A program made the position numbers and the translations under genes. A model generated the notes under the pieces. It was not told where the DNA came from. It did no database searches and saw only the letters and a list, made by a program, of their open reading frames with translations. From a virus (taxonomy: Duplodnaviria; Caudoviricetes): a stretch of 64,000 nucleotides of DNA. The first letter of the stretch is position 1. Each line of letters starts with the position of its first letter. Where the stretch lies: positions 64,001 to 128,000 of the IMG/VR virus record IMGVR_UViG_3300020471_000006; one strand, given 5' to 3'. Shown here one piece after another: positions 9,928 to 31,953 of this stretch.

Positions 9928-9931
9928 AGAC

Positions 9932-18647: not shown

Positions 18648-18841
18648 AGAAATTAGACAATCCGTATCTATTAGACGATAAGTTTATGATGCCAGGATTT
18701 GTTACTAAAGATCCTTATGGTGAATGGGCTGCTGTTCCTTGTGCTGGTAAGCATAACAGGTACATGGTCATACACAATGGTGAAATACTCAAGGCATGCA
18801 GTTATGATGTTGCCTTCAATTTAATGATGAAACACTATTAA
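18617..18841 (+). CDS. Hypothetical protein (start may be ATG 18686)
   Basis: ORF fills the gap and its stop overlaps the methyltransferase ATG (TAATG). Confidence 0.55.
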   Translation: MAKRTRKPKLEKLDNPYLLDDKFMMPGFVTKDPYGEWAAVPCAGKHNRYMVIHNGEILKACSYDVAFNLMMKHY

Positions 18842-19773
18842 TGAAAGATTACATATTATTTGGTGACTGTCTTGACTCACTCAAGATAATTGCAAATGAA
18901 GAACAGAAGGCACGTATGTGTGTCACATCTCCACCTTACTATGGTTTGAGAAACTATGGTGATGAAGAGAAACAGTTAGGTCAGGAACAATCACCTGAAG
19001 AGTATATTGATAATATGGTTAATGTCTTTCGTTTAGTAAGAGATTGTCTTACTGATGATGGTACACTATGGTTAAACATAGGTGATTCATATTATAATTA
19101 CAGAAAGGATGGATGTATACCTAAACAAACATTCTCTCAAAACAGACAAGACTTACCTAAAACTACACCACGTAGATCTAATAAACTTGTAGGATACAAA
19201 GATAAAGATCTTATTGGTATACCTTGGATGCTTGCATTTGCACTACGTGCTGATGGTTGGTATCTAAGGCAGGATATTATATGGCATAAACCAAATCCAA
19301 TGCCAGAGTCAGTTAGAGATCGTTGTACTAAAGCACATGAGTACATATTTCTATTAAGTAAGAGTAAATACTATCACTATGACAACGAAGCAATCAAAGA
19401 ACCTGCAAAGGACTGGGGTACAAGAGACAGAACAAATGGAAAGTACCACAATCCAGGATCAGGACTGCAACCGCATACAGGTCTTACAAAATCATATACA
19501 AAACGCAATAAACGCTCTGTCTGGTCAGTAAATAAGAAACCATACAAGGGTGCTCACTTTGCTACATATCCCGAAGAACTCATTGAACCATGCATCCTCG
19601 CAGGTTCGGAGAAGGGTGATATAGTATTAGATCCGTTCATGGGTAGTGGCACTACCGCATATGTTGCTAAGAAACATAGTAGAGCATACAGAGGGTGTGA
19701 ATTGCATAAGGAGTATGACAGTTTAATAAGTGACCGTATTCGCACCATTCCAAACAAATTACCGTTATACTAA
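18841..19773 (+). CDS. DNA methyltransferase (N4-cytosine/N6-adenine, beta class)
   Basis: Catalytic TSPPYYG near N-terminus, IIWHKPNPMP, HFATYP, SAM-binding VLDPFMGSGTT near C-terminus. Confidence 0.92.
   Translation: MKDYILFGDCLDSLKIIANEEQKARMCVTSPPYYGLRNYGDEEKQLGQEQSPEEYIDNMVNVFRLVRDCLTDDGTLWLNIGDSYYNYRKDGCIPKQTFSQNRQDLPKTTPRRSNKLVGYKDKDLIGIPWMLAFALRADGWYLRQDIIWHKPNPMPESVRDRCTKAHEYIFLLSKSKYYHYDNEAIKEPAKDWGTRDRTNGKYHNPGSGLQPHTGLTKSYTKRNKRSVWSVNKKPYKGAHFATYPEELIEPCILAGSEKGDIVLDPFMGSGTTAYVAKKHSRAYRGCELHKEYDSLISDRIRTIPNKLPLY
19766..19771 (+). promoter_or_regulatory. Candidate -10 box (TATACT) for the structured RNA
   Basis: TATACT ends 5 nt before the first base of the 13-bp terminal helix; no convincing -35. 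Confidence 0.4.
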
Positions 19774-19776
19774 GAA

Positions 19777-20021
19777 TGTTGAGAGGAACTGATGTGGTTC
19801 CTATGCCCCAAACCTACTGACTAGTCTGACTTAGAAGCAGACACATGACCGTTGGTAGAAACCTATTACTGCACATGACAGATGGTTGAGACTCTTAATT
19901 ATACTTCGTAAAGGAGTTAGCATAGAGTCAAGTGGTGGGGGTTCAGGTGTAAGCGATTCCCATAGGGTAAATTTGGGCAACTGGGTGAAACCTAGATCAT
20001 TGCCCCACGTTCCTCTCAACA
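19777..20021 (+). ncRNA. Candidate ~245-nt multi-stem non-coding RNA
   Basis: Perfect 13-bp terminal inverted repeat TGTTGAGAGGAAC (19777-89)/GTTCCTCTCAACA (20009-21) enclosing at least six further helices; no convincing + strand ORF. Confidence 0.7.
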
Positions 20022-20040
20022 CCCCATTATATTTTGAACG

Positions 20041-20460
20041 ATGCCTTCTACAGTATCACAACAACAAAAAGCAAGATTCTTTGCTGAAGGACACACACTC
20101 CCTACATGTGTGAATGATGGTTGTAATAATAATGTACAGGTAAGAGAGTGGAAGTATTGGTCATTCAAATCAGAATGTTCTAGTTGTGCCACTGCACGTA
20201 AGAAAGGAGTTGATAGACCTAATGTTACAAGACATAAAAAGAACTATTGCGAAAACAACGATGGTCATCTAGGATGGACATGTCCTGTATCCACATTCGT
20301 AGGATTTGAGACTAGTCTTGACTTAGACCATTTAGATGGTGATCATCATAACAATGTTCCTAGTAATGTCAAGACATACTGTAAACTATGTCATGGACGT
20401 AAATCAATATTAAATGGAGACTGTAACAGTAACAAATCATCATCGAGGAGTATTGGATGA
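20041..20460 (+). CDS. Small HNH endonuclease with Cys-rich (zinc-binding) N-terminus
   Basis: LDLDHLDGDHHNNVPSNVKTYCKLCH HNH signature; CVNDGC and CSSC upstream. Confidence 0.85.
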   Translation: MPSTVSQQQKARFFAEGHTLPTCVNDGCNNNVQVREWKYWSFKSECSSCATARKKGVDRPNVTRHKKNYCENNDGHLGWTCPVSTFVGFETSLDLDHLDGDHHNNVPSNVKTYCKLCHGRKSILNGDCNSNKSSSRSIG

Positions 20461-21236
20461 TCATACATGATGATGCATTAAATCATTTAACTAAGATGGA
20501 TGGAGATAGTATACACCTTACGTGTACATCTCCTCCATATTTTAATGCAAAGGCATACGCACAGTGGCCAACATATGATAAGTATCTACAATTCCTTGAG
20601 GATATATTCCGTGAAGTTCACAGAGTCACAGTACAAGGAAGGATGTGTGCTGTTAATTTATCACCAGTAATACAAGCACGTGAGTCAAGAGCACATGAAA
20701 GTAAGAGACTTGCGATACCATTCCACTTCTTTAGTATTATGGAGAGATTGGGATGGCAATACATTGATGATATTATATGGTTGAAACCAGAAGGATCTGC
20801 TGTTAATCGTAACGGTGGATTCTATCAGCATCGTAAACCAGTAGCATACAAACCAAATCTTGTTACAGAGACTATATTAATATTCAAGAAGCCTGCACCA
20901 TTCCTTATAGATAAGACAGTGCGTTCCTATGCTCCTGATATATTAGAACAATCATTAGTACCTGATGGTTATGAAAGATCAAATGTATGGCAGTTTAATC
21001 CTGAGACTACATCAAAGCATTTAGCACCATACCCTAAAGAACTATCAGATAAGATTGTACAATACTATTCATTTGTGAATGATGTTGTTCTTGATCCGTT
21101 CATGGGGTCAGGCACTACTGCGATATCATGTCTAGATCATGACAGAAAGTATATTGGTATTGAAATTCATGAAGAGTATGTTAAGATGGCAAATGATCGT
21201 ATTAAGCGTCACACACCACTTAAGAGGTTTCTATGA
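20457..21236 (+). CDS. Second DNA methyltransferase (N4-cytosine/N6-adenine, beta class)
   Basis: TSPPYFN, IIWLKPE, HLAPYP, VLDPFMGSGTTA; ATGA overlap with HNH stop. Confidence 0.92.
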   Translation: MIIHDDALNHLTKMDGDSIHLTCTSPPYFNAKAYAQWPTYDKYLQFLEDIFREVHRVTVQGRMCAVNLSPVIQARESRAHESKRLAIPFHFFSIMERLGWQYIDDIIWLKPEGSAVNRNGGFYQHRKPVAYKPNLVTETILIFKKPAPFLIDKTVRSYAPDILEQSLVPDGYERSNVWQFNPETTSKHLAPYPKELSDKIVQYYSFVNDVVLDPFMGSGTTAISCLDHDRKYIGIEIHEEYVKMANDRIKRHTPLKRFL

Positions 21237-21433
21237 AGGATCAACAGAGCATTGATGAACAGGAGACACATGATCAGAAATGGAATCGTGGACTGGATTT
21301 ATACATAGAATCAGTACACAAACCTGATAATCAGTTACGTGGTTGTGCTCATAACCAGAAGTGTTTCAATGAACTGATGGAAGTAAGAGCACATGTATTA
21401 GAATACTTAACGACCTTACGGAGACCAGTATGA
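21233..21433 (+). CDS. Hypothetical protein
   Basis: 66-aa ORF, ATGA overlaps both ends. Confidence 0.65.
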   Translation: MKDQQSIDEQETHDQKWNRGLDLYIESVHKPDNQLRGCAHNQKCFNELMEVRAHVLEYLTTLRRPV

Positions 21434-21783
21434 AAAGTAGAAGAACGATGTTAGCAGAAGCAATACAAATGTATCTTGATGATGCATCTGTTGATGAGTT
21501 TCATGCTGATCTAGAGTCAGAATTAGAGAGACTACAATCATATCATCAACAACATGCTGATGATGCTGCTAAAATGAGTGGCAAAGCACCCAAGACAGTC
21601 CTATTAAATGAAGAGGATTGGAATGAGTGGGGTCAAAACCCTGATTGGACACCACCACCTGAAGAAGGTTATGAGTATACTCCAACCACTATACCTGGTA
21701 AAGCAGAGCAAAAATCATATAATTATGCTGCTCACATTACTATGTCAGATATAGCAAAATTTCACAGGGGTAGCACCTTGTAG
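21430..21783 (+). CDS. Hypothetical acidic protein
   Basis: 117-aa ORF with ATGA overlap. Confidence 0.65.
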   Translation: MKSRRTMLAEAIQMYLDDASVDEFHADLESELERLQSYHQQHADDAAKMSGKAPKTVLLNEEDWNEWGQNPDWTPPPEEGYEYTPTTIPGKAEQKSYNYAAHITMSDIAKFHRGSTL

Positions 21784-21786
21784 TGT

Positions 21787-21841
21787 GACAGTTAACAAAC
21801 TGTTTCAAATTGGGTGACAATGGTCTGATCTGTACTATACT
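21787..21841 (+). promoter_or_regulatory. Palindrome-promoter cassette
   Basis: GACAGTT-AACA-AACTGTT, 31 nt, TATACT. Confidence 0.65.
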
Positions 21842-21863
21842 AGGTACATCAACAAGTTACCCA

Positions 21864-22022
21864 ATGAAAGTCACTTCAAAAACAAGAAGCACATCAAATG
21901 GGAAGATTATTATCTGCCCTTGTTGTGACCAACCATCAAGAGTATACCACTTTGCGTGGTCAGCACTCTCATGTGCTCACTGTGATGAATCTGTACCCAA
22001 ATTAGCATGGAACTTATTATGA
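21864..22022 (+). CDS. Small zinc-ribbon protein
   Basis: ATG 21864 downstream of promoter; CPCC...VYHFAWSALSCAHC. Confidence 0.65.
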   Translation: MKVTSKTRSTSNGKIIICPCCDQPSRVYHFAWSALSCAHCDESVPKLAWNLL

Positions 22023-22270
22023 ACGAATTGATCCAAGACTTCACTGATAACATTTCATATTGTAAACATGTTATTGGTTGTAATGAAGAGCAGACTGATG
22101 AACTCATTGCTGCTGCTGATGACTTAGGTTGTTCAGTTGAATATTTTTGTGAAGAGTTTATCGTTGCTCCCGATGGTGAACCATGTATGAAATATCAAGA
22201 CGGAGAATTCCTTGATATTGATACATTTAACACATATCATGGCATCTATTTTGAATATGAGGTAGATTAA
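22019..22270 (+). CDS. Hypothetical acidic protein
   Basis: ATGA overlap at 22019; in ORF track from 22007. Confidence 0.6.
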   Translation: MNELIQDFTDNISYCKHVIGCNEEQTDELIAAADDLGCSVEYFCEEFIVAPDGEPCMKYQDGEFLDIDTFNTYHGIYFEYEVD

Positions 22271-22488
22271 TGAGTTTGAAAGCAGATACTATTAGTAGGA
22301 TCATTGGGTCTATACTAATAGTAGTCTCTTATTTTGTTATACTGCATGTCAATGTGATTACTGGTACAGTATTACATGCATTTGCTGATGTGATCAGCAT
22401 ACCATATTTCATTCGTACTAAAGGATGGGATGTGGTTATTATGTTATCATTCATGACGTGCATTTCTGTAAGCAAGTTTGCTTTATAA
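22270..22488 (+). CDS. Small membrane protein
   Basis: Hydrophobic stretches IIGSILIVVSYFVILHV and VVIMLSFMTCISV; TAATG overlap. Confidence 0.65.
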   Translation: MSLKADTISRIIGSILIVVSYFVILHVNVITGTVLHAFADVISIPYFIRTKGWDVVIMLSFMTCISVSKFAL

Positions 22489-22490
22489 CA

Positions 22491-22685
22491 ATGCCAAAGA
22501 AGTTTCCTTTTTCGATAGGTGATCGTGTACGATTCAATGATGATGAAGGGTTCATCACATTTATAGACACAGCGTACTTTACGTTGTGTGTTAGAGAGTG
22601 GGAGGATAAGACTAAGCGTAATGGTGTAGGTCAGGTCAATGTTTTAATATACAGGTCATACTGGGATAAAGTAGAAAGACTGTGA
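22491..22685 (+). CDS. Hypothetical protein (SH3/KOW-like beta pattern)
   Basis: ATG 22491; FSIGDRVRFNDDEGFITFID. Confidence 0.55.
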   Translation: MPKKFPFSIGDRVRFNDDEGFITFIDTAYFTLCVREWEDKTKRNGVGQVNVLIYRSYWDKVERL

Positions 22686-22738
22686 CACTCAAGAGAGTGT
22701 CCACATTCTATTGCATCCGCTTTTGTATGCACTATAAT
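22684..22738 (+). promoter_or_regulatory. Palindrome-promoter cassette
   Basis: GACACTC-AAGA-GAGTGTC, TTGCAT at 22711, TATAAT at 22733, then AAGGAAC ribosome site. Confidence 0.75.
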
Positions 22739-22763
22739 AAGTACATAACAAACAAAGGAACAC

Positions 22764-22991
22764 ATGACTAGACCAGAATTCGTTGAGTATGTTGAATCAT
22801 TCTACTTACCAACACATGAAGATGTATTATATCCTATTGAAGGATTAACTAGTCAGAAGATTGAAGATGCACTTGATGTGTACATTGAGAGAATTGAGAA
22901 AGGTGACCTAGAGTATGTACATTACTCATGGGGTGGTGGTGATAGTTTAGACAGAGAAAGAGTAAGAGATATCATACTAGAGACAGTTTAA
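22764..22991 (+). CDS. Hypothetical acidic protein
   Basis: 75 aa, AAAGGAA upstream of ATG. Confidence 0.7.
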   Translation: MTRPEFVEYVESFYLPTHEDVLYPIEGLTSQKIEDALDVYIERIEKGDLEYVHYSWGGGDSLDRERVRDIILETV

Positions 22992-23037
22992 TTACTGTCA
23001 CACACTCTGTTGCATTCATGCAACCATCCATTATAAT
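22982..23037 (+). promoter_or_regulatory. Palindrome-promoter cassette
   Basis: GACAGTT-TAAT-TACTGTC, TTGCAT at 23010, TATAAT at 23032; downstream TATAATAAGTACAT..AAAGGAACAC nearly identical to the previous cassette. Confidence 0.75.
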
Positions 23038-23064
23038 AAGTACATCAACCAAAGGAACACTACC

Positions 23065-23463
23065 ATGACCGTAGCAGAAAGAACTCAAGACCTAGTAAAT
23101 GCTCTTGAGAATAACTACAAAGAATACACAAGACAGGGATACATCAGAAATCCATGTGATTATAGTTTAAGGAAACTTGAAGAGATTGACAACGGCACTG
23201 CTAAACTAGTTAAGTTTAGAATACAAAGTGGTCGCAAGTATTACAAACTAATTCAACAGGACTATGATACATTCCAAGATAGAAATGAGTATCGTGATGG
23301 TGGTGTACATGCATTTGTAGATAAAAAGACAGGTGATGTGTTCAAACCAGCAGGTTGGCAAGGACCAGCAAAGTATGCTAGATATAATTTGTTAGATGAA
23401 ACATCTTATCAAAAAGCATTAGCAAGAGCAGATTGGGCAGGTGGTTATCTCTATTTGAGATAA
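23065..23463 (+). CDS. Conserved phage hypothetical protein
   Basis: GRKYYKL...VHAFVDKKTGDVFKPAGWQGPAKYARYNL...DWAGGYLY motif recognised from other phage proteins (recall, not searched). Confidence 0.75.
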   Translation: MTVAERTQDLVNALENNYKEYTRQGYIRNPCDYSLRKLEEIDNGTAKLVKFRIQSGRKYYKLIQQDYDTFQDRNEYRDGGVHAFVDKKTGDVFKPAGWQGPAKYARYNLLDETSYQKALARADWAGGYLYLR

Positions 23464-23526
23464 TAATAGAGGCAAGGATCTATGGTTGTCTGTGTTCAGC
23501 ATGGAAATTACGTCCTGTAAGTCCTC

Positions 23527-23555
23527 TTGACTTTCTACTCATTCTCTGTTACACT
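23527..23555 (+). promoter_or_regulatory. Sigma70-type promoter
   Basis: TTGACT-17 nt-TACACT. Confidence 0.6.
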
Positions 23556-23576
23556 ACAATTAGCACTTTTATCATC

Positions 23577-23870
23577 ATGTCAAAAAAGTTCTACAATCAA
23601 CAATTAAAAGCACAACGCTTGTCACCACTGGTAGTATCTCATGTTAAAGAATTACTCTCTCCTATTGATACGAACAACCAACGCTCTGCATTTACCGTTC
23701 GTATTAATACTAACGCTGATCCTGAGTCTAGAGATTACAGAGCATTTTGGAATTACCAATCTCGTTTCACTCTTGAGTTTGTTAAAGCAGTAGAGTCCTT
23801 GATACCACAGGGTTTACGCCTTGTTGAGTATGATCATTTGAATAATAAACTATCATTGGAGCGTGTGTAA
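23577..23870 (+). CDS. Hypothetical protein
   Basis: ATG 23577 just downstream of the promoter; the longer start at 23433 would overlap the upstream gene and promoter. Confidence 0.65.
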   Translation: MSKKFYNQQLKAQRLSPLVVSHVKELLSPIDTNNQRSAFTVRINTNADPESRDYRAFWNYQSRFTLEFVKAVESLIPQGLRLVEYDHLNNKLSLERV

Positions 23871-24104
23871 ATGGACATTATTCTAGAAAGATTTCCGTAT
23901 CGATACGTACAGGATGGTACACTTGAAATCAATGGTAAACCAGACTATCGTATTCAGAAATTCAATGAGTATACTAGACGATACAATGACATGTATTATC
24001 TAGATAATGCAATGCAATTAGATGCATGCTTAGAAGACGTAGAGTACACCAAATGGTTAGATCCAGCAGGTGTTCCAGCATATAGGCATGAAGAAGATGA
24101 ATAA
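23871..24104 (+). CDS. Conserved cyanophage hypothetical protein
   Basis: LERFPYRYVQ...NGKPDYRIQK...MYYLDN...EYTKWLDP. Confidence 0.75.
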   Translation: MDIILERFPYRYVQDGTLEINGKPDYRIQKFNEYTRRYNDMYYLDNAMQLDACLEDVEYTKWLDPAGVPAYRHEEDE

Positions 24105-24324
24105 CATTGATGCACTACGCATCTCTCAACAGAGGGATGCGATTTGTGATTGGGTTGAAGATCGATTCTTCCAATTAATTAAGGAAGAACGACATGATGA
24201 TGCCATAGATTTTGCTGATGAGTATATTGAGTGGATGAATCCCGACTTATACATAAACGAGTCCACTCATTTTTATAACGCAAATGAGCTCACTGAACTC
24301 TATGAATCAATCACAAATGGATGA
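24097..24324 (+). CDS. Hypothetical protein
   Basis: In ORF track from 24070; likely ATG 24097. Confidence 0.6.
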   Translation: MNNIDALRISQQRDAICDWVEDRFFQLIKEERHDDAIDFADEYIEWMNPDLYINESTHFYNANELTELYESITNG

Positions 24325-24451
24325 CTCCATGAGAGAACTGGTTCTACAATATTGTGAGGCACAAGCCAATCATGATGATGAACTAGCACAACGTATTCTA
24401 GCAGAGATTGAAATGATTAACAAACTTTGCAATAAAAAGACACATGACTGA
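24317..24451 (+). CDS. Microprotein, 44 aa
   Basis: Hand-translated MDDSMRELVLQYCEAQANHDDELAQRILAEIEMINKLCNKKTHD; 8-nt overlaps with both neighbours. Confidence 0.5.
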   Translation: MDDSMRELVLQYCEAQANHDDELAQRILAEIEMINKLCNKKTHD

Positions 24452-24608
24452 TGTTAATGGTTGGGAGAGAGAATACCTCTCGGATGCATTTAATGTGATT
24501 AGCAAGCGAGAGAGGCAGATCCTTGAAGGATCACCTCTCAAATCACATGAAGGCATGATTTATGGTAAAATGTATGCTGCATGGAAGAAACAACATGATA
24601 TACCTTGA
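24444..24608 (+). CDS. Microprotein, 54 aa
   Basis: Hand-translated MTDVNGWEREYLSDAFNVISKRERQILEGSPLKSHEGMIYGKMYAAWKKQHDIP. Confidence 0.55.
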   Translation: MTDVNGWEREYLSDAFNVISKRERQILEGSPLKSHEGMIYGKMYAAWKKQHDIP

Positions 24609-25182
24609 GAATGCAAATGTTAGTGAAGTATTCAGTGATTTCATAATTGATGTTGAATTTGATAATGATTTAAAACAACTTACTGATGATGTCTATAAGT
24701 TGAAGGATCAGTATACTTCTCAAGGATACAGCAACGTCGGAGGTTGGCAGTCGCCAGGATTTTCACCTCAATCACAAGTCCCAGAAAGTCTCTCTAAACT
24801 ACAGTGGGATGTGTATGAATTTGTTCATACTGTTATTGGTAGAAGATTTAACAAATCTATTAGTAAAGAACAAATAGGTTGGTGGACTAGTATTAATGAG
24901 AAGCATTGCTATAATAGTATACATCATCATGGTCGAACAGATGTGATTGCGATAGCGTACATAAAAGCACAACCTAACAGTGGTGATCTTGTAGTATCTC
25001 GCAATGACGGTTCAACTTACACACGATTAGATGATGATAACACTTATTCAATACCTGCTAATGCTGGTAGGTTAATTGTATTACCAGGTCATGTATGGCA
25101 TTACGTCAATGAGAATAATAATAATGATGATCGCATAAGTGTATCATATAACTTTTATGTACAATTAAAGTGGAATGGTTAA
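24595..25182 (+). CDS. 2OG-Fe(II) oxygenase-like protein (TIGR02466-type)
   Basis: GWQS, WTSINEK, HHHG, GDLVV, LIVLPGHVWHYV, RISVSYNF; likely ATG 24595. Confidence 0.8.
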   Translation: MIYLENANVSEVFSDFIIDVEFDNDLKQLTDDVYKLKDQYTSQGYSNVGGWQSPGFSPQSQVPESLSKLQWDVYEFVHTVIGRRFNKSISKEQIGWWTSINEKHCYNSIHHHGRTDVIAIAYIKAQPNSGDLVVSRNDGSTYTRLDDDNTYSIPANAGRLIVLPGHVWHYVNENNNNDDRISVSYNFYVQLKWNG

Positions 25183-25184
25183 CG

Positions 25185-25310
25185 ATGGTAGTCATTAATG
25201 CTGAGAACATAAGATTATTCATTATCATGGTGTTGGGTGGTGTCTGGTTATATCTGCTGATCGAAACACTAGCAGAAGAATCAGTAAAGAACGATAAACG
25301 AAACAGATAG
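25185..25310 (+). CDS. Single-pass membrane microprotein, 41 aa
   Basis: Hand-translated MVVINAENIRLFIIMVLGGVWLYLLIETLAEESVKNDKRNR. Confidence 0.45.
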   Translation: MVVINAENIRLFIIMVLGGVWLYLLIETLAEESVKNDKRNR

Positions 25311-25336
25311 ATATATTATACCACGAGAGTATTACA

Positions 25337-25498
25337 ATGTCACATTACGTTGTTGGTTATCACGACTACGAAATGCATACACACGAGGTGTGTGAATATG
25401 CAAAAGACTCATACGAAGCAAGATCCGAAGCAATTGAGGATGTACCATATATTCATGAACACCCAAACTGTATCGATTATATCTTAGAGGAGAAATAG
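25337..25498 (+). CDS. Microprotein, 53 aa
   Basis: Hand-translated MSHYVVGYHDYEMHTHEVCEYAKDSYEARSEAIEDVPYIHEHPNCIDYILEEK; GAGAG upstream. Confidence 0.65.
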   Translation: MSHYVVGYHDYEMHTHEVCEYAKDSYEARSEAIEDVPYIHEHPNCIDYILEEK

Positions 25499-25543
25499 GC
25501 ATAAATTCTTGTTACATACAGAGAGAATTGTCACACATCCCAC

Positions 25544-25550
25544 ATAAATA
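25544..25550 (+). promoter_or_regulatory. Candidate late promoter (ATAAATA)
   Basis: Intergenic ATAAATA 73 nt before the ATG at 25624. Confidence 0.5.
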
Positions 25551-25623
25551 GTGGTAGAATTAGGAAAACAAGATGCACCCAAAGTCACTTTGTTATGTTT
25601 TTAATTCACTTACGAGGTAGTAT

Positions 25624-25788
25624 ATGCATAATCTCATCTCTCAGAATCAATTAGCAGATTGGAATCACATCGAATCAGATGTTACACAAGATAGACTGGT
25701 CGATCTCAATGATTACTACGACTGTATTATAGATGAAGAGATGAATCACGGCGATAAACGAATATGTAGAAGTTTACTGCCACGCTAA
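25624..25788 (+). CDS. Two-cysteine microprotein, 54 aa
   Basis: Hand-translated MHNLISQNQLADW...NDYYDC...DKRICRSLLPR; GAGGT ribosome site at ~25614. Confidence 0.65.
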   Translation: MHNLISQNQLADWNHIESDVTQDRLVDLNDYYDCIIDEEMNHGDKRICRSLLPR

Positions 25789-25807
25789 TAAAATTAAATA
25801 TCACAAC

Positions 25808-25842
25808 AAACCCTTGACTTATTCAGTCAGGGGTTTTATAAT
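25808..25842 (+). promoter_or_regulatory. Sigma70-type promoter with -35 embedded in a hairpin
   Basis: AAACCCTTGAC-TTATTCA-GTCAGGGGTTT; TTGACT(25814)-17 nt-TATAAT(25837). Confidence 0.7.
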
Positions 25843-25863
25843 GGAATGAAATACTATAATATT

Positions 25864-26082
25864 ATGTTAGACAAGACAAAGATACGTGCTCAAATGAAAA
25901 GTAGATGGTACTATTTCTTTTGGAGTTCAGCAACTGTATCAGTTCTGCTAGGTCAATTATATGTTGGTAATGGTTACAGAATGTATTCAAAAGCATTGAT
26001 GACAATATTTGAATCAATTGCAATTGAATACGATAGATCACCAACAGGACCATATGAGTATATCTCAAATGATCGTCACTGA
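25864..26082 (+). CDS. Small membrane protein
   Basis: KIRAQMKSRWYYFFWSSATVSVLLGQLYVG; likely ATG 25864. Confidence 0.65.
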   Translation: MLDKTKIRAQMKSRWYYFFWSSATVSVLLGQLYVGNGYRMYSKALMTIFESIAIEYDRSPTGPYEYISNDRH

Positions 26083-26599
26083 ACAACATGAAATAATAAT
26101 ATCAACAGTACCACATCATAAGACATTAAATAAAAGACTTATGCGTGATGCTGATGAATGTGAGTATGATTTATCATATCAAACAAATGTTATGGCTAAG
26201 CACACTGCTTGGCAAACATACTCACCAAATATTACTATCATTCAGAACTATGTGCATGATGCCATCTTATCAATTCCTGGTATTGATGAACAATATTGGA
26301 TAGACATGAGATGGAGTCATATTGATACGTGGTTTTCTAAGTATGATCATGATGAGTATGCTAGAAAGCACTGTCATCATCCAAATGCATGGGGTTGGGT
26401 ATATTTTGTGAATACACCCGAAGGATCATCACCACTAGTATTATCTACAAGTAACACAGAGATTGAAGCAGTAGCAGGTAAAATAGTAATATTTCCTGCA
26501 TGTATTATGCATCACGTCCCTATGAATAAATGTTTGAATAGAATAGTATTAGCAGGTAATGTTGGATTTGATCGTAAACTACACAATTTAAAATTATGA
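26069..26599 (+). CDS. 2OG-Fe(II) oxygenase-like protein
   Basis: TWFSKY, HCH, WVYFV, IVIFPACIMHHVP, RIVLAGN; start probably 26054 or 26069. Confidence 0.8.
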   Translation: MIVTEQHEIIISTVPHHKTLNKRLMRDADECEYDLSYQTNVMAKHTAWQTYSPNITIIQNYVHDAILSIPGIDEQYWIDMRWSHIDTWFSKYDHDEYARKHCHHPNAWGWVYFVNTPEGSSPLVLSTSNTEIEAVAGKIVIFPACIMHHVPMNKCLNRIVLAGNVGFDRKLHNLKL

Positions 26600-27165
26600 C
26601 AACTGGTCAGTGGTTTCCCCTCCCATTATATGAATATCAATGTGAGAGTATAAAAGAAAGGAAAGACTTGAACAATGATCTTCCATTGAGTGAGTTTACC
26701 CATCGTGAAGGTTGGAGTGCTGATACACATCAACTCACACCTCATCCATTTGAGTCAAATGTAATAGAAAACTCACACGTGTTTCAATCATTTCTTAAAA
26801 CACATGTACATAAGTATCTGTCTGAAATTGGTATCAAACACATAGATGAGTATTATATTAACAACTCATGGTACACGTCAACTACAAATGGACAGTATGC
26901 TCACCTACACAGTCATGGTGGCAGTGATATTTCTGGGGTGTATTATATAAGTACTAACCAGAGGGATGGTAATATATATTTTCATTCACCCCATTACGTG
27001 AGTGAGAATAATTATATCATTGCACATTTGGATATGGCACGACAAGTCACACCATCTAAAGGTAAATTGTTGTTATGGCCCTCATTCTTAATGCATGGTA
27101 CACGTATGAATGAAACAAATCACAATCGTGTATCATTATCATTTAATATAACATTCAGACGATGA
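26596..27165 (+). CDS. 2OG-Fe(II) oxygenase-like protein (TIGR02466-type)
   Basis: WFPLPLY, HSHGGSDISGVYY, LLLWPSFLMHGT, RVSLSFNI. Confidence 0.85.
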   Translation: MTTGQWFPLPLYEYQCESIKERKDLNNDLPLSEFTHREGWSADTHQLTPHPFESNVIENSHVFQSFLKTHVHKYLSEIGIKHIDEYYINNSWYTSTTNGQYAHLHSHGGSDISGVYYISTNQRDGNIYFHSPHYVSENNYIIAHLDMARQVTPSKGKLLLWPSFLMHGTRMNETNHNRVSLSFNITFRR

Positions 27166-27419
27166 AATCAATTCAATTAACAGACAAACAACTCAACATA
27201 CTCATTCAATTAGTTAATTGTGAACAGTATACTGTCACTGATGATAATTTGAATGAAGAGTTAAATGATTTAAGACGTGCATTACAATCACGTCCTAATC
27301 CCAGACAACAAATAAATGCTGAATATCAATCAAGACATCAATATATGCCTGAGTTTGAATCAACAGCACAAAATATAGTTGAAAGACACACACCTATGCC
27401 ACCTAACTATCCACAATGA
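27162..27419 (+). CDS. Hypothetical protein
   Basis: 85 aa, ATGA overlaps. Confidence 0.55.
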   Translation: MKSIQLTDKQLNILIQLVNCEQYTVTDDNLNEELNDLRRALQSRPNPRQQINAEYQSRHQYMPEFESTAQNIVERHTPMPPNYPQ

Positions 27420-27577
27420 GAACACAAAACAAAGAGAATTACTATTACATTTTCTGGGTAATAGCAATGTTAGCATTCATAGCACCCCAAGTATTCACTG
27501 CATACACAGTACAATCAGTATTGGATAGATTAAATGAACCAATACAAATACAATTAGTAAGAGGTAAACTACGTTGA
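27416..27577 (+). CDS. Single-pass membrane microprotein, 53 aa
   Basis: Hand-translated MRTQNKENYYYIFWVIAMLAFIAPQVFTAYTVQSVLDRLNEPIQIQLVRGKLR. Confidence 0.6.
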   Translation: MRTQNKENYYYIFWVIAMLAFIAPQVFTAYTVQSVLDRLNEPIQIQLVRGKLR

Positions 27578-27579
27578 AG

Positions 27580-27777
27580 ATGAACAATCAAACTAAATTG
27601 TTATTTGCATTAGAACATATAGCACACTTAGAGGATTTATTTGAAGATAATGCAGATGGAGCATTACTATCAGCATCACTCAGAGATATCAAATTTATAC
27701 TGGATAGACAGTATAACACACTACATAAACGTAGGCAACCAGGACATCAATATCGTTTGGATGAATTACAGGAATAG
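27580..27777 (+). CDS. Hypothetical protein
   Basis: MNNQTKLLFALEHIAHLEDL...; ATG 27580. Confidence 0.65.
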   Translation: MNNQTKLLFALEHIAHLEDLFEDNADGALLSASLRDIKFILDRQYNTLHKRRQPGHQYRLDELQE

Positions 27778-27779
27778 TA

Positions 27780-28172
27780 CAGTTGTTCTATGTACATCCG
27801 CACATTGGTATCACTGAGTTTTCCACAGTTTTTTGAGGTGTTGTGGAAAACATTTAAAATATATTAAAAAATATAAGTAACGTGCTCTCATGATGTTGTC
27901 TTAGGCCGCCCTCGACCGAATGTCAAGTCACCTTGTGCCAGTTCTTTTAGTGTCACACAAACCCTCGAAAAGACACGAAAGCACACTATAATAAAAGAGT
28001 AGTTCGGAGGATTAGCACTTTTATGACTTTTTGAGTTTTTCACAACCCTGTGGAAAACAAAAAGACGAAAAAATGGGTTTTTAAGCTTTTTAAGAAGTTT
28101 AAGAAGGCTATTTTTTCATATTTTGCGATTTTTCGAGTTTTTTCGAGTTTAACTTAACACAAACGCCCTAAA
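27780..28172. other. Origin-like non-coding block
   Basis: ~390 nt without ORF; two inverted pairs of TTTT(C/T)CACA, AT-rich stretch 27852-27880, tandem 10-mers TTTCGAGTTT, divergent promoter-like elements. Confidence 0.5.
27937..27992 (+). promoter_or_regulatory. Palindrome-promoter cassette (degenerate right arm)
   Basis: GCCAGTT-CTTT-TAGTGTC, 32 nt, TATAAT at 27987. Confidence 0.6.
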
Positions 28173-28421
28173 ATGTCAACTATTTACGATAAATTCACAT
28201 CAAGTGCGATTAAATCAGTCGAAACACTTGACAACACTGTGAAAATAGTTTATAATAGCAATATAGACAAAGAATATGTATTTAATTGCCAAAATATCAC
28301 TCAATTCACTAATAAACTATGTGAAGTATTAACAGCACATGAGTTACTATTAGAGGGAGGATCTGTGGGACGATTTGTTAACAATCAAATCAAAACAGGT
28401 GTCCTTATTGAGAATAAATAA
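28173..28421 (+). CDS. Hypothetical protein, KTSC-like pattern
   Basis: SSAIKSV...VKIVYNSN..KEYVF...GSVGRFVNNQIK resembles the KTSC domain outline. Confidence 0.65.
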   Translation: MSTIYDKFTSSAIKSVETLDNTVKIVYNSNIDKEYVFNCQNITQFTNKLCEVLTAHELLLEGGSVGRFVNNQIKTGVLIENK

Positions 28422-28441
28422 TGTTCCCCTAGTTAATAACA

Positions 28442-28621
28442 ATGGCAAGACACGGTAAGCATAACAAATCATCCAAACTTAAGGATAATTTTGTTAACGA
28501 CTTCGATGATTACGGTTTAGATGTAAAGAATGTAAGGAGGATTAAGAAAAAGAAAGTTACAAAGTTCAAGAATTATGATGATAGTTATTATCATTCAGAT
28601 AATTACAGTCATGGTTATTAG
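28442..28621 (+). CDS. Basic microprotein, 59 aa
   Basis: Hand-translated MARHGKHNKSSKLKDNFVNDFDDYGLDVKNVRRIKKKKVTKFKNYDDSYYHSDNYSHGY. Confidence 0.55.
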   Translation: MARHGKHNKSSKLKDNFVNDFDDYGLDVKNVRRIKKKKVTKFKNYDDSYYHSDNYSHGY

Positions 28622-28630
28622 TTAAGGTAT

Positions 28631-28707
28631 GACAGTTCACAAACTGTCCTCAAATTGTTTCAATTCATTACAAAGCACCTTTCGAGGTGCTTTTTTCATT
28701 TTATAAT
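28631..28707 (+). promoter_or_regulatory. Palindrome-hairpin-promoter cassette
   Basis: GACAGTT-CACA-AACTGTC, hairpin AAAGCACC-TTTCGA-GGTGCTTT plus T-run, TATAAT at 28702. Confidence 0.65.
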
Positions 28708-28731
28708 GAACGAGTCACACGCATTTAATTA

Positions 28732-28968
28732 ATGACAGTCGCAACAGCAACCAAACCAACAGCACCTCGTAAGAGACGCACACGTAAGGTCGCAGTAAAG
28801 ACAGTTAAGGTCACCTCACCACGTAGACCAAGTGCAGCAAAGTTGATTAGTCCTAATCGCTACTGGTCAGACATCAAAGCACGTTGGTCAATTCATCAGT
28901 ACGAAGTTACTATGTTAGCACGTGACCTAACCAAACTTAACAAGTGGGTGAGACAGTTCACAAACTGA
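28732..28968 (+). CDS. Hypothetical protein with basic N-terminus
   Basis: PRKRRTRKVAVKTVK...; 78 aa downstream of cassette promoter. Confidence 0.65.
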   Translation: MTVATATKPTAPRKRRTRKVAVKTVKVTSPRRPSAAKLISPNRYWSDIKARWSIHQYEVTMLARDLTKLNKWVRQFTN

Positions 28969-29028
28969 CCACTAAATTGTTACGAATCTGTTACAAAACC
29001 CCATAAGGGGTTTTTTATTGACTATAAT
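28952..29028 (+). promoter_or_regulatory. Palindrome-hairpin-promoter cassette
   Basis: GACAGTT-CACA-AACTGAC, hairpin AAAACCCC-ATAA-GGGGTTTT plus T-run, TATAAT at 29023. Confidence 0.65.
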
Positions 29029-29053
29029 TAAGGAGTACACACAAAAAAGGTTT

Positions 29054-29200
29054 ATGTCAACACTTCATCACGAGTCATTACTAGAGTCATGCTATGAGGA
29101 CGTAATGGCAGAGATCACCGACACAGGTGATATTGCTATGATGAACAACGAGGACATCGAAAGAGCAGTCCAAATGAGATTCGAAAGCATGTGCCAGTAA
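29054..29200 (+). CDS. Acidic microprotein, 48 aa
   Basis: ATG 29054 after AAAAGG; MSTLHHESLLESCYEDV... Confidence 0.6.
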   Translation: MSTLHHESLLESCYEDVMAEITDTGDIAMMNNEDIERAVQMRFESMCQ

Positions 29201-29250
29201 ACAAACTGTCACCCGACCCCTTCACAGGGGTCTTTTTTTATGTGTATAAT
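29193..29250 (+). promoter_or_regulatory. Palindrome-hairpin-promoter cassette
   Basis: GCCAGTA-AACA-AACTGTC, hairpin GACCCC-TTCACA-GGGGTC plus T-run, TATAAT at 29245. Confidence 0.65.
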
Positions 29251-29275
29251 AGAAGAGTACAACACAAAGGACTCT

Positions 29276-29596
29276 ATGCGTAAGATTGAACAGCAAATGA
29301 ATTCAGCAATCAACAATCGTGTATCATGGCACAACAGCAATACACGTGTTGACAGAATGGGCAACCGTTCAGAGGTTTATTTGCACAACAATCAAATTGC
29401 AACAGTTTATGACAATGGCGATCTTCAACTATCCTCAGCAGGATGGGAGACTGTCACCACTAAGTCAAGACTGAATGCAATTTTAGATAATTTCTTTGGG
29501 TACGGTCTCAGAATATTTCAGAGAGACTGGACCTGGTACATCGGTGACAGTCGTCAAACTGACCTATTCTTTGACGGATACGTCATCCAAAGATGA
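29276..29596 (+). CDS. Conserved phage hypothetical protein
   Basis: MRKIEQQM...VYLHNNQIA...GWETVTTKSRLNAIL...IFQRDWTWY; ATG 29276 after AAAGGA. Confidence 0.75.
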   Translation: MRKIEQQMNSAINNRVSWHNSNTRVDRMGNRSEVYLHNNQIATVYDNGDLQLSSAGWETVTTKSRLNAILDNFFGYGLRIFQRDWTWYIGDSRQTDLFFDGYVIQR

Positions 29597-29607
29597 TATC
29601 ATTATAA

Positions 29608-29633
29608 GGGGTGGCAACACCCCGATTTTTTTT
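29608..29633 (+). terminator. Intrinsic terminator
   Basis: GGGGTG-GCAA-CACCCC followed by GA and a T-run. Confidence 0.65.
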
Positions 29634-29746
29634 AACCTTACCCCTCTAATACTATGGCACGTTACATTGCGTCTTATTGCAATGAAGAGTACATGACGTT
29701 GTTTTTGTTTCTTTTTGCAAAGAAAGCGTGGGATCATGTTGATTCA

Positions 29747-29755
29747 TGTTATAAT
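29747..29755 (+). promoter_or_regulatory. Extended -10 promoter
   Basis: TG-T-TATAAT, GGAG site before ATG 29781. Confidence 0.5.
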
Positions 29756-29780
29756 ATAGAACACCCTACGGAGACTGATC

Positions 29781-29906
29781 ATGGACTGGGAAGAGTATTT
29801 AAAAAATGAACTTGCTTACTATGATGAGCACCCCGAAGAGGATGCCCCTATTATAGAGGCACATACAAATGATTGTGCAATGATTGAGATTTCTTACATG
29901 GATTGA
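29781..29906 (+). CDS. Acidic microprotein, 41 aa
   Basis: Hand-translated MDWEEYLKNELAYYDEHPEEDAPIIEAHTNDCAMIEISYMD. Confidence 0.55.
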   Translation: MDWEEYLKNELAYYDEHPEEDAPIIEAHTNDCAMIEISYMD

Positions 29907-29962
29907 ACCAGTTCACAAAGTGGCACAACTCATGTAGATAAGACAAACCCATTTGCTATAAT
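29907..29962 (+). promoter_or_regulatory. Palindrome-promoter cassette
   Basis: ACCAGTT-CACA-AAGTGGC, 32 nt, TG-C-TATAAT at 29957. Confidence 0.65.
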
Positions 29963-29966
29963 TAAC

Positions 29967-30063
29967 TTGTTGAGGCAAACGCTAGGCAAGGGTGAGCAAC
30001 AATTCAGAAGGATCTTAAATGACCGTGTATTGAACATGGTGATCGTACTGTTTTCCTTTGCTC
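29967..30063 (+). ncRNA. Candidate ~100-nt small RNA (alternatively a 43-codon TTG ORF)
   Basis: Starts 4 nt after TATAAT; helices TTGTTG/CAACAA, ACCGTGT/ACATGGT, GCAAGGG/CCTTTGC; no ribosome site. Confidence 0.35.
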
Positions 30064-30174
30064 TTTATGTTTGGAGACCTCTAGTACTCACAGTTTGAAA
30101 CTGTCAACTCAAATTTGAGTTGCTTGAGTTTTGAAGTTGTAAGTCCTCAACACTCAAACCATTTCATTTATTAC

Positions 30175-30342
30175 ATGTCTGAAACCGTTCGAACTCTCAC
30201 AATCACCGAAGCAGAAGAGACTGCATTGGTTGAGATCATTCGCTACTTCAACGATATGGGTTTACCTGATAACGTTGATAGCACAGATTACGACACACTA
30301 ACTGAGAAGGTGTGCGAACCAGCATTTTGGGAGTACAACTAA
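30175..30342 (+). CDS. Microprotein, 55 aa
   Basis: ATG 30175; MSETVRTLTITEAEETALVEIIRYF... Confidence 0.6.
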   Translation: MSETVRTLTITEAEETALVEIIRYFNDMGLPDNVDSTDYDTLTEKVCEPAFWEYN

Positions 30343-30563
30343 TGGTACAATCTGAATTCTTTGGCAGAACTTTTTGGTTGGGTAAAGATAACCAACTTAA
30401 GAGTGCTGCCACTTTTATTGAAGGTGGAGCAGACTATGACAATTTTGATTATGTCTGCGATTGGACTGACTGGGAGGGTGTCAACTACTATGAGTTATTT
30501 GATGTCATCTCTGAACTAATCACACAAAAGGAGGCACGACTAGATGCGAACCTACCACATTGA
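30342..30563 (+). CDS. Hypothetical acidic protein
   Basis: TAATG overlap at 30342. Confidence 0.6.
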   Translation: MVQSEFFGRTFWLGKDNQLKSAATFIEGGADYDNFDYVCDWTDWEGVNYYELFDVISELITQKEARLDANLPH

Positions 30564-30714
30564 GTGCATGGAAACAAATTGTTTCATTGTTGAGGTTGAA
30601 GCAGAGAGCGAAGACCACGCAAGGGAACTAGCACACAATGACATCAACTCACATGAGGTCATCCAAGAATGGGTGACCGACTGGGAAATTAATTTAATCA
30701 CGGAGGCATCATGA
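30544..30714 (+). CDS. Microprotein, 56 aa (paralogue of 30887..31054)
   Basis: Hand-translated MRTYHIECMETNCFIVEVEAESEDHARELAHNDINSHEVIQEWVTDWEINLITEAS; GGAGG upstream. Confidence 0.65.
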   Translation: MRTYHIECMETNCFIVEVEAESEDHARELAHNDINSHEVIQEWVTDWEINLITEAS

Positions 30715-30890
30715 GTTTTTTTAATCACGTTCAATTGCATAAGTACGACATCACCGACAAGGGGATCTCTCAAGCATGTTATGATGAACTTGTCGCAAGT
30801 GGCAACAATTCAACAGAAGATCAGTTGAGAGTCCTTGCTGATGATATGCGTGAACAGTTCAAAGATTACATGAGACCTTTATTCTCATGA
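30711..30890 (+). CDS. Microprotein, 59 aa
   Basis: Hand-translated MSFFNHVQLHKYDITDKGISQACYDELVASGNN...; GGAGG upstream, ATGA overlaps. Confidence 0.6.
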   Translation: MSFFNHVQLHKYDITDKGISQACYDELVASGNNSTEDQLRVLADDMREQFKDYMRPLFS

Positions 30891-31054
30891 ATCAATTTAG
30901 AGTCGAGTGTTCAGAGGTAAACTACTTCACGGTTTTAGTTGAAGCAGAGACCAAAGAACAGGCAAGCACACTTGCTAAAGCAAATATCAATTCATTTGAT
31001 ATTGAGGATGACTACACCTCAGAAATTGCAATTGAGAACATAGAGGAATTATGA
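30887..31054 (+). CDS. Microprotein, 55 aa (paralogue of 30544..30714)
   Basis: Hand-translated MNQFRVECSEVNYFTVLVEAETKEQASTLAKANINSFDIEDDYTSEIAIENIEEL. Confidence 0.65.
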   Translation: MNQFRVECSEVNYFTVLVEAETKEQASTLAKANINSFDIEDDYTSEIAIENIEEL

Positions 31055-31203
31055 AAGTTGATGTGTATTCAATGCTAGATGGTCACACGGTTGACCGCAT
31101 AGCAGAAGACATTGCCGAAGCATTGGCAAAAAATGGTTATGATGTCTCAGCGATTAGTTGGGACATTGATTGCAACGTACTCTCACCTAACGAGGATCTA
31201 TGA
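31051..31203 (+). CDS. Microprotein, 50 aa
   Basis: Hand-translated MKVDVYSMLDGHTVDRIAEDIAEALAKNGYDVSAISWDIDCNVLSPNEDL; GAGG upstream. Confidence 0.6.
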   Translation: MKVDVYSMLDGHTVDRIAEDIAEALAKNGYDVSAISWDIDCNVLSPNEDL

Positions 31204-31445
31204 AATTAACAACCGATCAACTAGACGGCATCATTGACCAATTTTCTGAAATCATTGTTGATGGCATGGACACAAAGACCCTTTGCCAATATGTGTATGA
31301 TGACCTAGTGGATTACTACAGCAAACTTTCACAAGATGAACTCCAGGAATTCATTATACAGCATGATGAGGATCTCTGGGATGAGTTAGTGGACAATGAA
31401 ACAAGTGTCCCACCAGTGGTTGAAAAATCATTTGGTCTGCTATAA
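31200..31445 (+). CDS. Hypothetical acidic protein
   Basis: 81 aa; its last codons run through the next promoter cassette. Confidence 0.65.
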   Translation: MKLTTDQLDGIIDQFSEIIVDGMDTKTLCQYVYDDLVDYYSKLSQDELQEFIIQHDEDLWDELVDNETSVPPVVEKSFGLL

Positions 31446-31446
31446 T
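31392..31446 (+). promoter_or_regulatory. Palindrome-promoter cassette
   Basis: GACAATG-AAAC-AAGTGTC, 31 nt, TG-C-TATAAT at 31441. Confidence 0.6.
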
Positions 31447-31473
31447 AAGAATGTACACACAAAGGGAGACCAT

Positions 31474-31779
31474 TTGAAAAGACTTGAACTAATCATGGGT
31501 CGTGACATTCCTAACAATGGCACAGTTACTGATTACATGATGGATGAGTTTATTCGCCGTGAGATCATGCCACATTTTGAGTATGGCACTTTCATAGATG
31601 GCGAAGGTCTCTGGAAAGGTGAACTAGAGCAAACCAAGATTTTTTATCTTGAGTGTGCTGATTCTGAAGTGGATGAGCATATGCTATCTTTGAACTGTAT
31701 CGCAGCAGCGTACAAAAAACAGTTCAGACAAGACAGCGTTCTTATCTCACAAGTGCAAACCAACGCAATTTTTAACTAA
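31474..31779 (+). CDS. DUF3574-like protein, possible SAM-lyase fold
   Basis: TTG start after GGGAG; RLELIMGRDIP...GEGLWKGELEQTK...AYKKQFRQDSVL. Confidence 0.65.
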   Translation: MKRLELIMGRDIPNNGTVTDYMMDEFIRREIMPHFEYGTFIDGEGLWKGELEQTKIFYLECADSEVDEHMLSLNCIAAAYKKQFRQDSVLISQVQTNAIFN

Positions 31780-31910
31780 TGAGCATCCGCTACTGGACAC
31801 CCAACGACCAACGCAACGCAAGAACAATTTCATTTTCTAGCAAAGAGAAAGCGTTGGACATGTTAGCATTTTATCAAGGTGCTGGCATACGTTGTGAATT
31901 GTGTTACTAA
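31779..31910 (+). CDS. Microprotein, 43 aa
   Basis: Hand-translated MSIRYWTPNDQRNARTISFSSKEKALDMLAFYQGAGIRCELCY; TAATG overlap. Confidence 0.55.
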   Translation: MSIRYWTPNDQRNARTISFSSKEKALDMLAFYQGAGIRCELCY

Positions 31911-31953
31911 GTGTAACAGGGTGATGGGCAACCGTCACCCCATCCTCTATAAT
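31909..31953 (+). promoter_or_regulatory. Degenerate palindrome arm + hairpin + -10 box
   Basis: Right arm AAGTGTA ends 32 nt before TATAAT (31948); 9-bp GCAA-loop hairpin 31919-31940 covers the -35 position. Confidence 0.55.

Follow-up and report, generated by a model that had tools for sequence, protein, structure and literature searches.

Transcription of the early genes of T4-like cyanophages is reportedly controlled by a novel regulatory element, which Doron et al. are said to have defined in 2016 from Syn9 and P-TIM40 and which is reported to be abundant and conserved in these phages. The late promoters of P2 and P4 that respond to Ogr and Delta carry a dyad (TGT-N12-ACA) near -55, and their activator contacts RNA polymerase. 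Two further systems bear on the locus described here: the PeSLs of T4-type phages, which are cassettes of a stem-loop and a sigma70-type early promoter (Arbiol et al. 2010, PMC2839356; Comeau et al. 2014, PMC4122927), and CGRE1, a palindrome found in Prochlorococcus and Synechococcus (PMC6191309). The locus itself is an array of palindromes, each at a nearly fixed distance from a -10 box, within 64,000 nucleotides (nt) of viral DNA (hereafter the window, bases 64001-128000 of the IMG/VR virus record IMGVR_UViG_3300020471_000006, which is 202,519 bp long and rated complete). A preliminary description of the window had read the palindromes as sites for a dimeric regulator, as recombination sites, or both; we argue that they are very probably protein-bound promoter elements, and report that their half-site is shared with CGRE1.

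The repeated unit takes the form tgtGACASTT-N4-AASTGTCaca, followed by 31-34 nt (53 in two paralogues) and then by TATAAT or TATACT. Ten such units lie in the window and 14 in the genome, all 14 on the plus strand and co-directional with the genes; a strand bias is also seen among loose matches in this genome, 14 of 18 being on the plus strand. With two mismatches allowed, GACAGTT-N4-AACTGTC occurs eight times in the window against 0.46 expected, a count reached in none of 100 shuffles. Genome-wide, 14 of approximately 35 loose matches (up to three mismatches) have TATAAT or TATACT 31-34 nt downstream, for which a rough estimate of the chance expectation is about 0.1. Beyond the -10 box the units in the window often continue with AAGTACAT, an A/C-rich leader and an AGGA-type ribosome site.

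A larger sample was obtained by pooling this genome with six isolate genomes and 200 IMG/VR loci (207 sequences, 3.2 Mb), in which 930 dyad matches on both strands were used for gap statistics. The distance from the dyad to TATAAT/TATACT peaks sharply, at 31 nt (50 cases), 32 (87), 33 (34) and 34 (11), with a minor cluster at 49-53 nt, some two helical turns further, and six cases at 26 nt that possess a true TTGACT -35 hexamer. The sub-class with the dyad 26-28 nt from the -10 box was found at L024, L028, L071 and in S-B43 (minus-strand scan position 152999); in it the dyad abuts the TTGACT hexamer, unlike the main class, which has no -35 element. A logo of 452 sites reads tgtGACAGTT...aAACTGTCAca, i.e., a 7-4-7 dyad with a weak outer extension, and shows zero information between dyad and -10 box, no -35 consensus and a weakly conserved A-T at positions 7-8 past the TATAAT hexamer. 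Sixty of the 452 spacers form a hairpin with a T run behind it, the terminator of the upstream gene. That the spacer keeps its length while its sequence is free is the strongest argument that a factor bound to the dyad would touch the transcription machinery at the -10 box. To judge from sequence, the dyad is thus very probably a protein-bound promoter element.

A transcript start about 7 nt past the -10 hexamer is weakly supported by contigs of RNA libraries (two runs of one sample) that start at 31453, 7 nt past the hexamer of unit 10; such metatranscriptome contigs show neither expression level nor true transcript ends, and stretches left uncovered by them carry no meaning. With this offset the centre of the dyad falls at -52.5 to -54.5, in agreement with the position near -53 proposed in the preliminary description.

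The unit is not confined to the present genome. The strict dyad is enriched in S-H9-1, S-WAM2, S-B43, S-PM2 and S-RIM32, with 4-9 copies against 1-2 for a control pattern, and each of these genomes holds 10-18 units of dyad plus -10 box (up to three mismatches), mostly on a single strand. Approximately 50 of 120 IMG/VR loci with an exact dyad share the unit architecture. In Syn9 the strict pattern is not enriched, and a degenerate dyad with a gap of 31-32 nt to a -10-like box is found at 44777, 47207, 48561, 49081, 52999, 127495, 130356 and 162056; such sites lie at the ends of gp60, gp67, gp72, gp74 and gp88 and ahead of gp61, gp68, gp73 and gp75, and the outer GTGAC...GTCAC is their best-kept part. 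The dyad unit is probably the early-gene element reported by Doron et al.: both are non-canonical, abundant and conserved in T4-like cyanophages, both are set in small-gene clusters beside 2OG-Fe(II) oxygenase and methyltransferase genes, and Syn9, where the element was defined, possesses the degenerate form. The dyad described here is, however, much stricter than that of Syn9.

The units, and the genes with which they are associated, are as follows.

19717..19771, plus strand: unit 1, dyad 19717-19734 (GACAGTT-TAAT-AAGTGAC), spacer 31 nt, TATACT 19766-19771; the methyltransferase gene 18841-19773 overlaps at its end with the dyad.
21787..21841, plus strand: unit 2, dyad 21787-21804, spacer 31 nt holding GTGACA (a -35-like hexamer), TATACT 21836-21841; predicted start near 21848, next gene 21864-22022.
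22684..22738, plus strand: unit 3, dyad 22684-22701 (GACACTC-AAGA-GAGTGTC), spacer 31 nt, TATAAT 22733-22738; it heads a single-gene cassette (gene 22764-22991) missing in the relative L329.
22982..23037, plus strand: unit 4, dyad 22982-22999 with the stop of gene 22764-22991 inside it, spacer 32 nt, TATAAT 23032-23037; next gene 23065-23463.
27937..27992, plus strand: unit 5, dyad 27937-27954 (GCCAGTT-CTTT-TAGTGTC), spacer 32 nt, TATAAT 27987-27992.
28631..28707, plus strand: unit 6, perfect dyad 28631-28648, spacer 53 nt containing a terminator hairpin (28672-28693), TATAAT 28702-28707; next gene 28732-28968.
28952..29028, plus strand: unit 7, a paralogue of unit 6, dyad 28952-28969 with the stop of gene 28732-28968 inside it, spacer 53 nt with a GC hairpin and then a T run, TATAAT 29023-29028; next gene 29054-29200.
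29193..29250, plus strand: unit 8, dyad 29193-29210 with the stop at 29200 inside it, spacer 34 nt, in its own right a terminator (29215-29232 with a T run), TATAAT 29245-29250; next gene 29276-29596.
29907..29962, plus strand: unit 9, dyad 29907-29924 (ACCAGTT-CACA-AAGTGGC) directly after the stop at 29906, spacer 32 nt, TATAAT 29957-29962.
31392..31453, plus strand: unit 10, dyad 31392-31409 inside the 3' end of gene 31200-31445, spacer 31 nt, TATAAT 31441-31446; next gene 31474-31779.
Genome positions 33411, 180297, 183210 and 187348, plus strand: four units outside the window with the same dyad/-10 architecture, followed by one gene of 75 amino acids, one that is cobT-like, one that is cobS-like and a small one in the clamp-loader region.

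Nine of these palindromes had been listed before, all at the correct coordinates and with exact gaps to TATAAT/TATACT (31, 31, 32, 32, 53, 53, 34, 32 and 31 nt); the copy at 19717, with its -10 box at 19766, had been overlooked. The observation that the stop codon of the upstream gene lies in or beside the palindrome was confirmed for six units (stops at 21783, 22685, 22991, 28968, 29200 and 29906). Two supposed degenerate copies are not dyad promoter units: that at 30089 lacks a -10 box, its spacer is of 3 nt and a terminator-like hairpin (30105-30122) accompanies it, and at 31909 there is no recognizable dyad, the promoter at 31948 having a GC hairpin in that place. At 30089-30122 the sequence reads ACAGTT-TGA-AACTGT, with no -10 box within 60 nt, and the relative L327 has 66 bp in place of the surrounding 117 bp. 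The structural regions, which had been described as free of the palindrome, hold one copy with a single mismatch, at 40830 in a gene for a 2853-amino-acid structural protein; it lacks a -10 box and looks like a chance match. In addition, a TATAAT on the minus strand (31353-31358) stands 33 nt from the dyad of unit 10, antisense to gene 31200-31445; this may be a second, leftward promoter or a chance match.

We consider it reasonably likely that the units are promoters of early-type small-gene clusters of a T4-like cyanophage and are activated by a host factor at the dyad. A dimeric DNA-binding protein, already present in the cell at infection, would occupy the dyad and recruit the host RNA polymerase holoenzyme, thereby replacing the missing -35 contact in a manner that would resemble class I/II activation. 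If these are first-wave promoters, the factor must pre-exist any phage gene expression, and on balance we slightly favour a host-encoded one, the best candidate being a GntR/PlmA-type protein (an orthologue of PMM1637). As a side effect, the repeated units would provide short identities through which homologous recombination could add, remove and reshuffle single-gene cassettes. What the sequences show is the anatomy and spacing of the units, their conservation, the lack of covariation between the arms, a half-site common to phage and host, and the joints in relatives; that a protein binds and activates, which protein this is and that the genes are early is what we infer. The earlier suggestion of a dimeric-factor site fits the fixed distance, the free spacer, the absence of a -35 element, the independence of the two arms and the conservation across genera, the binding itself being a prediction. 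The late promoters of P2 and P4 offer a parallel, since in them too a poor -35 region is combined with a dyad further upstream, near -55, although their sequence is unrelated and their activator is phage-encoded and late-acting. Readings of the dyad as a CRP, NtcA or LexA site, judged by the known consensus sites, were rejected on a misfit of spacing or half-site orientation.

The host candidate comes from a comparison with CGRE1. CGRE1 is described as a palindrome, 22 nt long in high-light Prochlorococcus and 21 nt long in low-light Prochlorococcus and Synechococcus, with flanks GTTA or GTTG and the inverted repeat of the flank 13-14 nt apart, and its edge lies 55-57 nt upstream of the start of yfr2 (PMC6191309). 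According to the same paper, it is bound by PMM1637, a GntR-family homologue of PlmA, and one half of it has been lost to an upstream terminator at yfr5 (PMC6191309, Lambrecht et al. 2018). With Rfam RF01701, yfr2 genes were located in over 100 picocyanobacterial genomes, and the sequences upstream of them were inspected. Full host sites consist of AACTGKCAC, 1-2 nt and GTGMCAGTT, and many yfr2 promoters have GTGACAGTT(A/G) 51-53 nt before the -10 box, the corresponding distance from GACAGT to the -10 box in the phage being 49-52 nt. In a high-light Prochlorococcus (locus L438; G002 contig 1, 1365773-1365792) a perfect 22-nt palindrome, CAACTGTCACA/TGTGACAGTTG, lies between two divergent yfr2-like sequences, neither of which attains the Rfam gathering score in the 361-nt piece; another locus, L406, has a perfect 19-nt core of the host site, and in a high-light yfr2 paralogue the distal half-site is replaced by a terminator. 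The site so reconstructed fits every point of the published CGRE1 description.

The CGRE1 half-site is identical to the phage arm plus its flank, the 9-mer GTGACAGTT, and the variants GCCAGTT and GACACTT are also common to both. In both, the copy that faces the promoter occupies approximately -65 to -57, host copy and phage left arm agreeing to within 1-3 bp; with transcription starting 7 nt past the -10 box, the left arm of the phage dyad would reach to about -55 to -57. The arrangement is nevertheless opposite: the host site is everted, its halves 1-2 nt apart and the partner half upstream, whereas the phage site is inverted (core GTT-N4-AAC), with a gap of 4 nt and the partner downstream beside the vacant -35 position. 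Host promoters also retain a -35-like hexamer that the phage units lack. A half-site common to host and phage at a matching position looks too specific for chance, and the combination of shared 9-mer, matching position and opposite arrangement is new in this analysis; a literature search found no link between cyanophages and PlmA or CGRE1. The exact 9-mer GTGACAGTT is not enriched genome-wide in the hosts, and fetched host sites outside yfr2 promoters had neither phage-type architecture nor an Rfam family, apart from the everted pair at G002:1365773-92. It is a tentative possibility that the early promoters of marine T4-like cyanophages are assembled from half-sites of the host PlmA-type GntR protein (PMM1637), with the promoter-facing half kept where it was and the second half moved to the -35 side.

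A number of points weigh against this proposal and should be considered with it. A centre near -53 is not the classical class I position for CRP-type activators, the early timing of the units is taken over from the element reported by Doron et al., and contig ends are weak evidence for a transcript start. The host-type everted pattern occurs 0-1 times per genome in seven phage genomes, and the phage-type dyad 2-12 times in five picocyanobacterial genomes against 12-16 for controls, with zero cases in the phage architecture. The letters of CGRE1 were reconstructed from a verbal description of the site. In addition, one rigid dimer cannot bind both the everted host layout and the inverted phage layout, and a yfr5 promoter with a single half-site is reported not to have been shifted by PMM1637 (PMC6191309). 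Because of these last two points, a PlmA-type regulator is put forward as a possible factor rather than a likely one.

The best of the competing explanations, albeit an unlikely one, is that the dyad is bound by a phage protein, either brought in by the virion or synthesized during the first minutes of infection, in a role like that of MotA in T4. This would account for the inverted arrangement, which occurs in none of the five host genomes and 60 yfr2 promoter regions examined, so that no host promoter is known to use it, and it would suit the fact that units also precede cobT-, cobS- and clamp-loader-region genes, beyond orphan genes. The half-site shared with the host would then be mimicry or coincidence. 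However, no GntR domain was found in the phage genome, and motA and asiA are reported to be missing in T4-like cyanophages (PMC5780444). The earlier remark that no cognate protein is identifiable in the window also holds, as no candidate DNA-binding gene was found there in a search limited to the window rather than the whole proteome.

Rather less probable is a repressor operator, at which the promoters would be shut off later in infection or under some host condition. Dyad symmetry is equally compatible with repressors, and GntR-family proteins often are repressors, but the site, at approximately -44 to -62, is upstream of where polymerase binds and its distance from the -10 box varies by no more than about 3 bp; promoters devoid of a -35 signal should, moreover, need help and not restraint. 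It is more improbable still that the dyad is a functionless passenger in a promoter cassette spread by copy-and-paste recombination. Joints in relatives do fall inside the cassette, and units 6 and 7 are obvious paralogues; yet spacer sequences diverge between copies whilst spacer length is retained, and the dyad is conserved across phage genera whose gp6 proteins are less than 60% identical.

The palindrome could also fold as a hairpin, within single-stranded DNA or the upstream mRNA, that serves in processing, stability or termination, or as a cruciform. Its location at the 3' end of the upstream gene, before a terminator in several units, and the symmetric change in both arms of the 22684 copy speak for such a structure, whereas a stem at a transcript end needs no fixed distance to the next -10 box. 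Arm pairs were counted in sites selected without use of the pair under test. At position 5/14 there were 109 G/C, 45 G/G, 23 C/C and 9 C/G, the last against 9.3 expected under independence, so that pairing of the arms is not maintained and each arm tolerates G or C; the uncompensated G/G and C/C forms far exceed the compensated C/G. At the pair 2/17 the symmetric form is moderately over-represented (chi-square about 8.8), and the few C/G cases at 7/12 come from about three independent sites, including 22684 and its orthologue; relatedness of sites can explain both. The double change at 22684 noted earlier is real and symmetric, and covariation of the arms is absent across the 200-320 sites per arm-position pair. 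By these counts at position 5/14 the hairpin model was rejected, leaving it a very small probability, and the dyad behaves as would fit two half-sites read independently on duplex DNA.

Gene gain and loss around the units was assessed by comparing the window with relatives of 90-95% nucleotide identity (L325-L330) and recording indels of at least 60 bp. Eight were found, two of which are joined at the repeated promoter and six away from any unit. The two are as follows.

22733..23031, plus strand: single-gene cassette of 299 bp, missing in L329 and in a metatranscriptome contig.
30889..31439, plus strand: three-gene block, replaced in L329 by 51 nt with its own dyad (ACCAGTT-GACA-AACTGGT) and a terminator.

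In the first, L329 has a hybrid promoter in which the dyad and spacer of unit 3 are joined to the leader of unit 4 within a shared 14 nt, TATAATAAGTACAT; in the second, the replacement ends on its right side at the -10 box of unit 10. The 299-bp deletion recurs in marine metatranscriptome contigs, with 14 ambiguous bases, and two more contig forms join the dyad side of one unit to the -10 side of another (23004 to 22733 and 29239 to 23032). The clearest joint, with the 14 shared nt, is thus in the -10/initial-transcribed stretch, two others are at or beside the -10 box and one is just after the palindrome; none of the joints in relatives and contigs is inside a palindrome. Among the indels away from units, a 2OG-Fe(II) oxygenase gene (24609-25181) has been lost precisely, as has the gene at 30892-31050. 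Likewise, a laboratory deletion in S-PM2d (wild-type 5799-15338) has a junction with short ACAACA-type microhomology away from any dyad unit, and a role of PeSLs in the S-PM2 deletion was judged unlikely by Puxty et al. 2015 (PMC4503421). The expectation that breakpoints in relatives would coincide with the motif is thus not borne out by most of them.

The idea of integron-style exchange at the dyad as a site-specific recombination site is barely tenable, for although the dyad marks cassette boundaries and one variant contig departs from the window just past it (at 23004), no tyrosine recombinase domain (PF00589) was found in the genome in a search that did not extend to serine recombinases, the clearest joint is in the 14-nt identity at the -10 box, and six of eight indels and the S-PM2d deletion are elsewhere. 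What stands of the earlier recombination claim is the swapping of promoter cassettes, seen in two indels and three contig joints. We conclude that the repeated promoters occasionally act as homology for cassette shuffling, in the manner of PeSLs, since the joints of these indels and contigs fall in promoter repeats. Like PeSLs, some of the units are composite terminator/promoter repeats between small genes of hyperplastic regions, and part of the gene gain or loss in close relatives joins within the repeats. They differ in that PeSLs are described without a separate upstream dyad, in that a terminator is present in the spacer of only some units here (6, 7, 8 and that at genome 183210), and in that the repeats were used in only two of eight indels.

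Some rearrangements in this region have other ends. Both L329 and a metatranscriptome contig precisely lack the segment 24609-25181 of gene 24562-25182, which encodes one of the three 2OG-Fe(II) oxygenase paralogues, and the joint is at no visible repeat. Further metatranscriptome contigs join 19890 to 23472, 19846 to 22082, 20008 to 22087 and 23523 back to 19938, so that in some variants 2-3.6 kb, the second methyltransferase included, is missing or rearranged; the ends of these rearrangements are in the non-coding stretch past the 19766 promoter.

The wider setting is that of a T4-like phage. The window encodes gp6 and gp8 (T4-type baseplate) and tail-fibre proteins, together with two N6/N4 DNA methyltransferases and three 2OG-Fe(II) oxygenases, and gp25 is present as well; the best GenBank phage match of gp6 is Synechococcus phage S-H9-1 (59% identity), and the PsbA of the phage is 95% identical to that of Prochlorococcus marinus MIT 1012. 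On the gene content and these two matches the source is identified as an uncultured T4-like cyanomyovirus (Kyanoviridae), and its host is probably Prochlorococcus. The palindrome array occupies a small-gene region upstream of gp25 and gp6, where the genes downstream of units belong to PHROG families of unknown function. A megablast of the region against GenBank phages gave no match, a tRNA search of it found none, and an Rfam scan of 17-36 kb found no family. T4-type late promoter boxes (ATAAATA) stand ahead of structural genes genome-wide, and one lies inside the small-gene region (window 25590-25624), before gene 25624-25788. A perfect TTGACA-17-TATAAT consensus without a dyad is present at 28228-28256, inside the small gene 28173-28421, and a second, near-perfect promoter of the TTGACA/TATAAT type at 25814-25842; there is therefore a separate host-like promoter class in the genome.

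Cyanophages kill a large share of the ocean's main primary producers, and so the onset of infection matters. As far as our literature search went, no recogniser of T4-like cyanophage early promoters has been established. The dyad element probably belongs to a kind already reported for these phages, to which this study adds evidence for a duplex protein site, an exact half-site relation to CGRE1 and the exchange of cassettes through promoter repeats in natural populations. The motif is now a testable proposal, that of a duplex protein site with a half-site equal to that of a host regulator known to bind DNA, and the rearranged geometry of its half-sites yields clean mutational predictions. Promoter-repeat cassette shuffling, known from enterobacterial and Vibrio T4-like phages, operates in natural cyanophages as well, in a minority of indels only. 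If the proposed link to the PlmA-type regulator is true, the phage co-opts a site that its host uses only at the promoters of stress-induced yfr2 small RNAs, and a host protein that senses light and nitrogen status would both drive and tune the first wave of phage transcription, for which no protein of the phage would be required.

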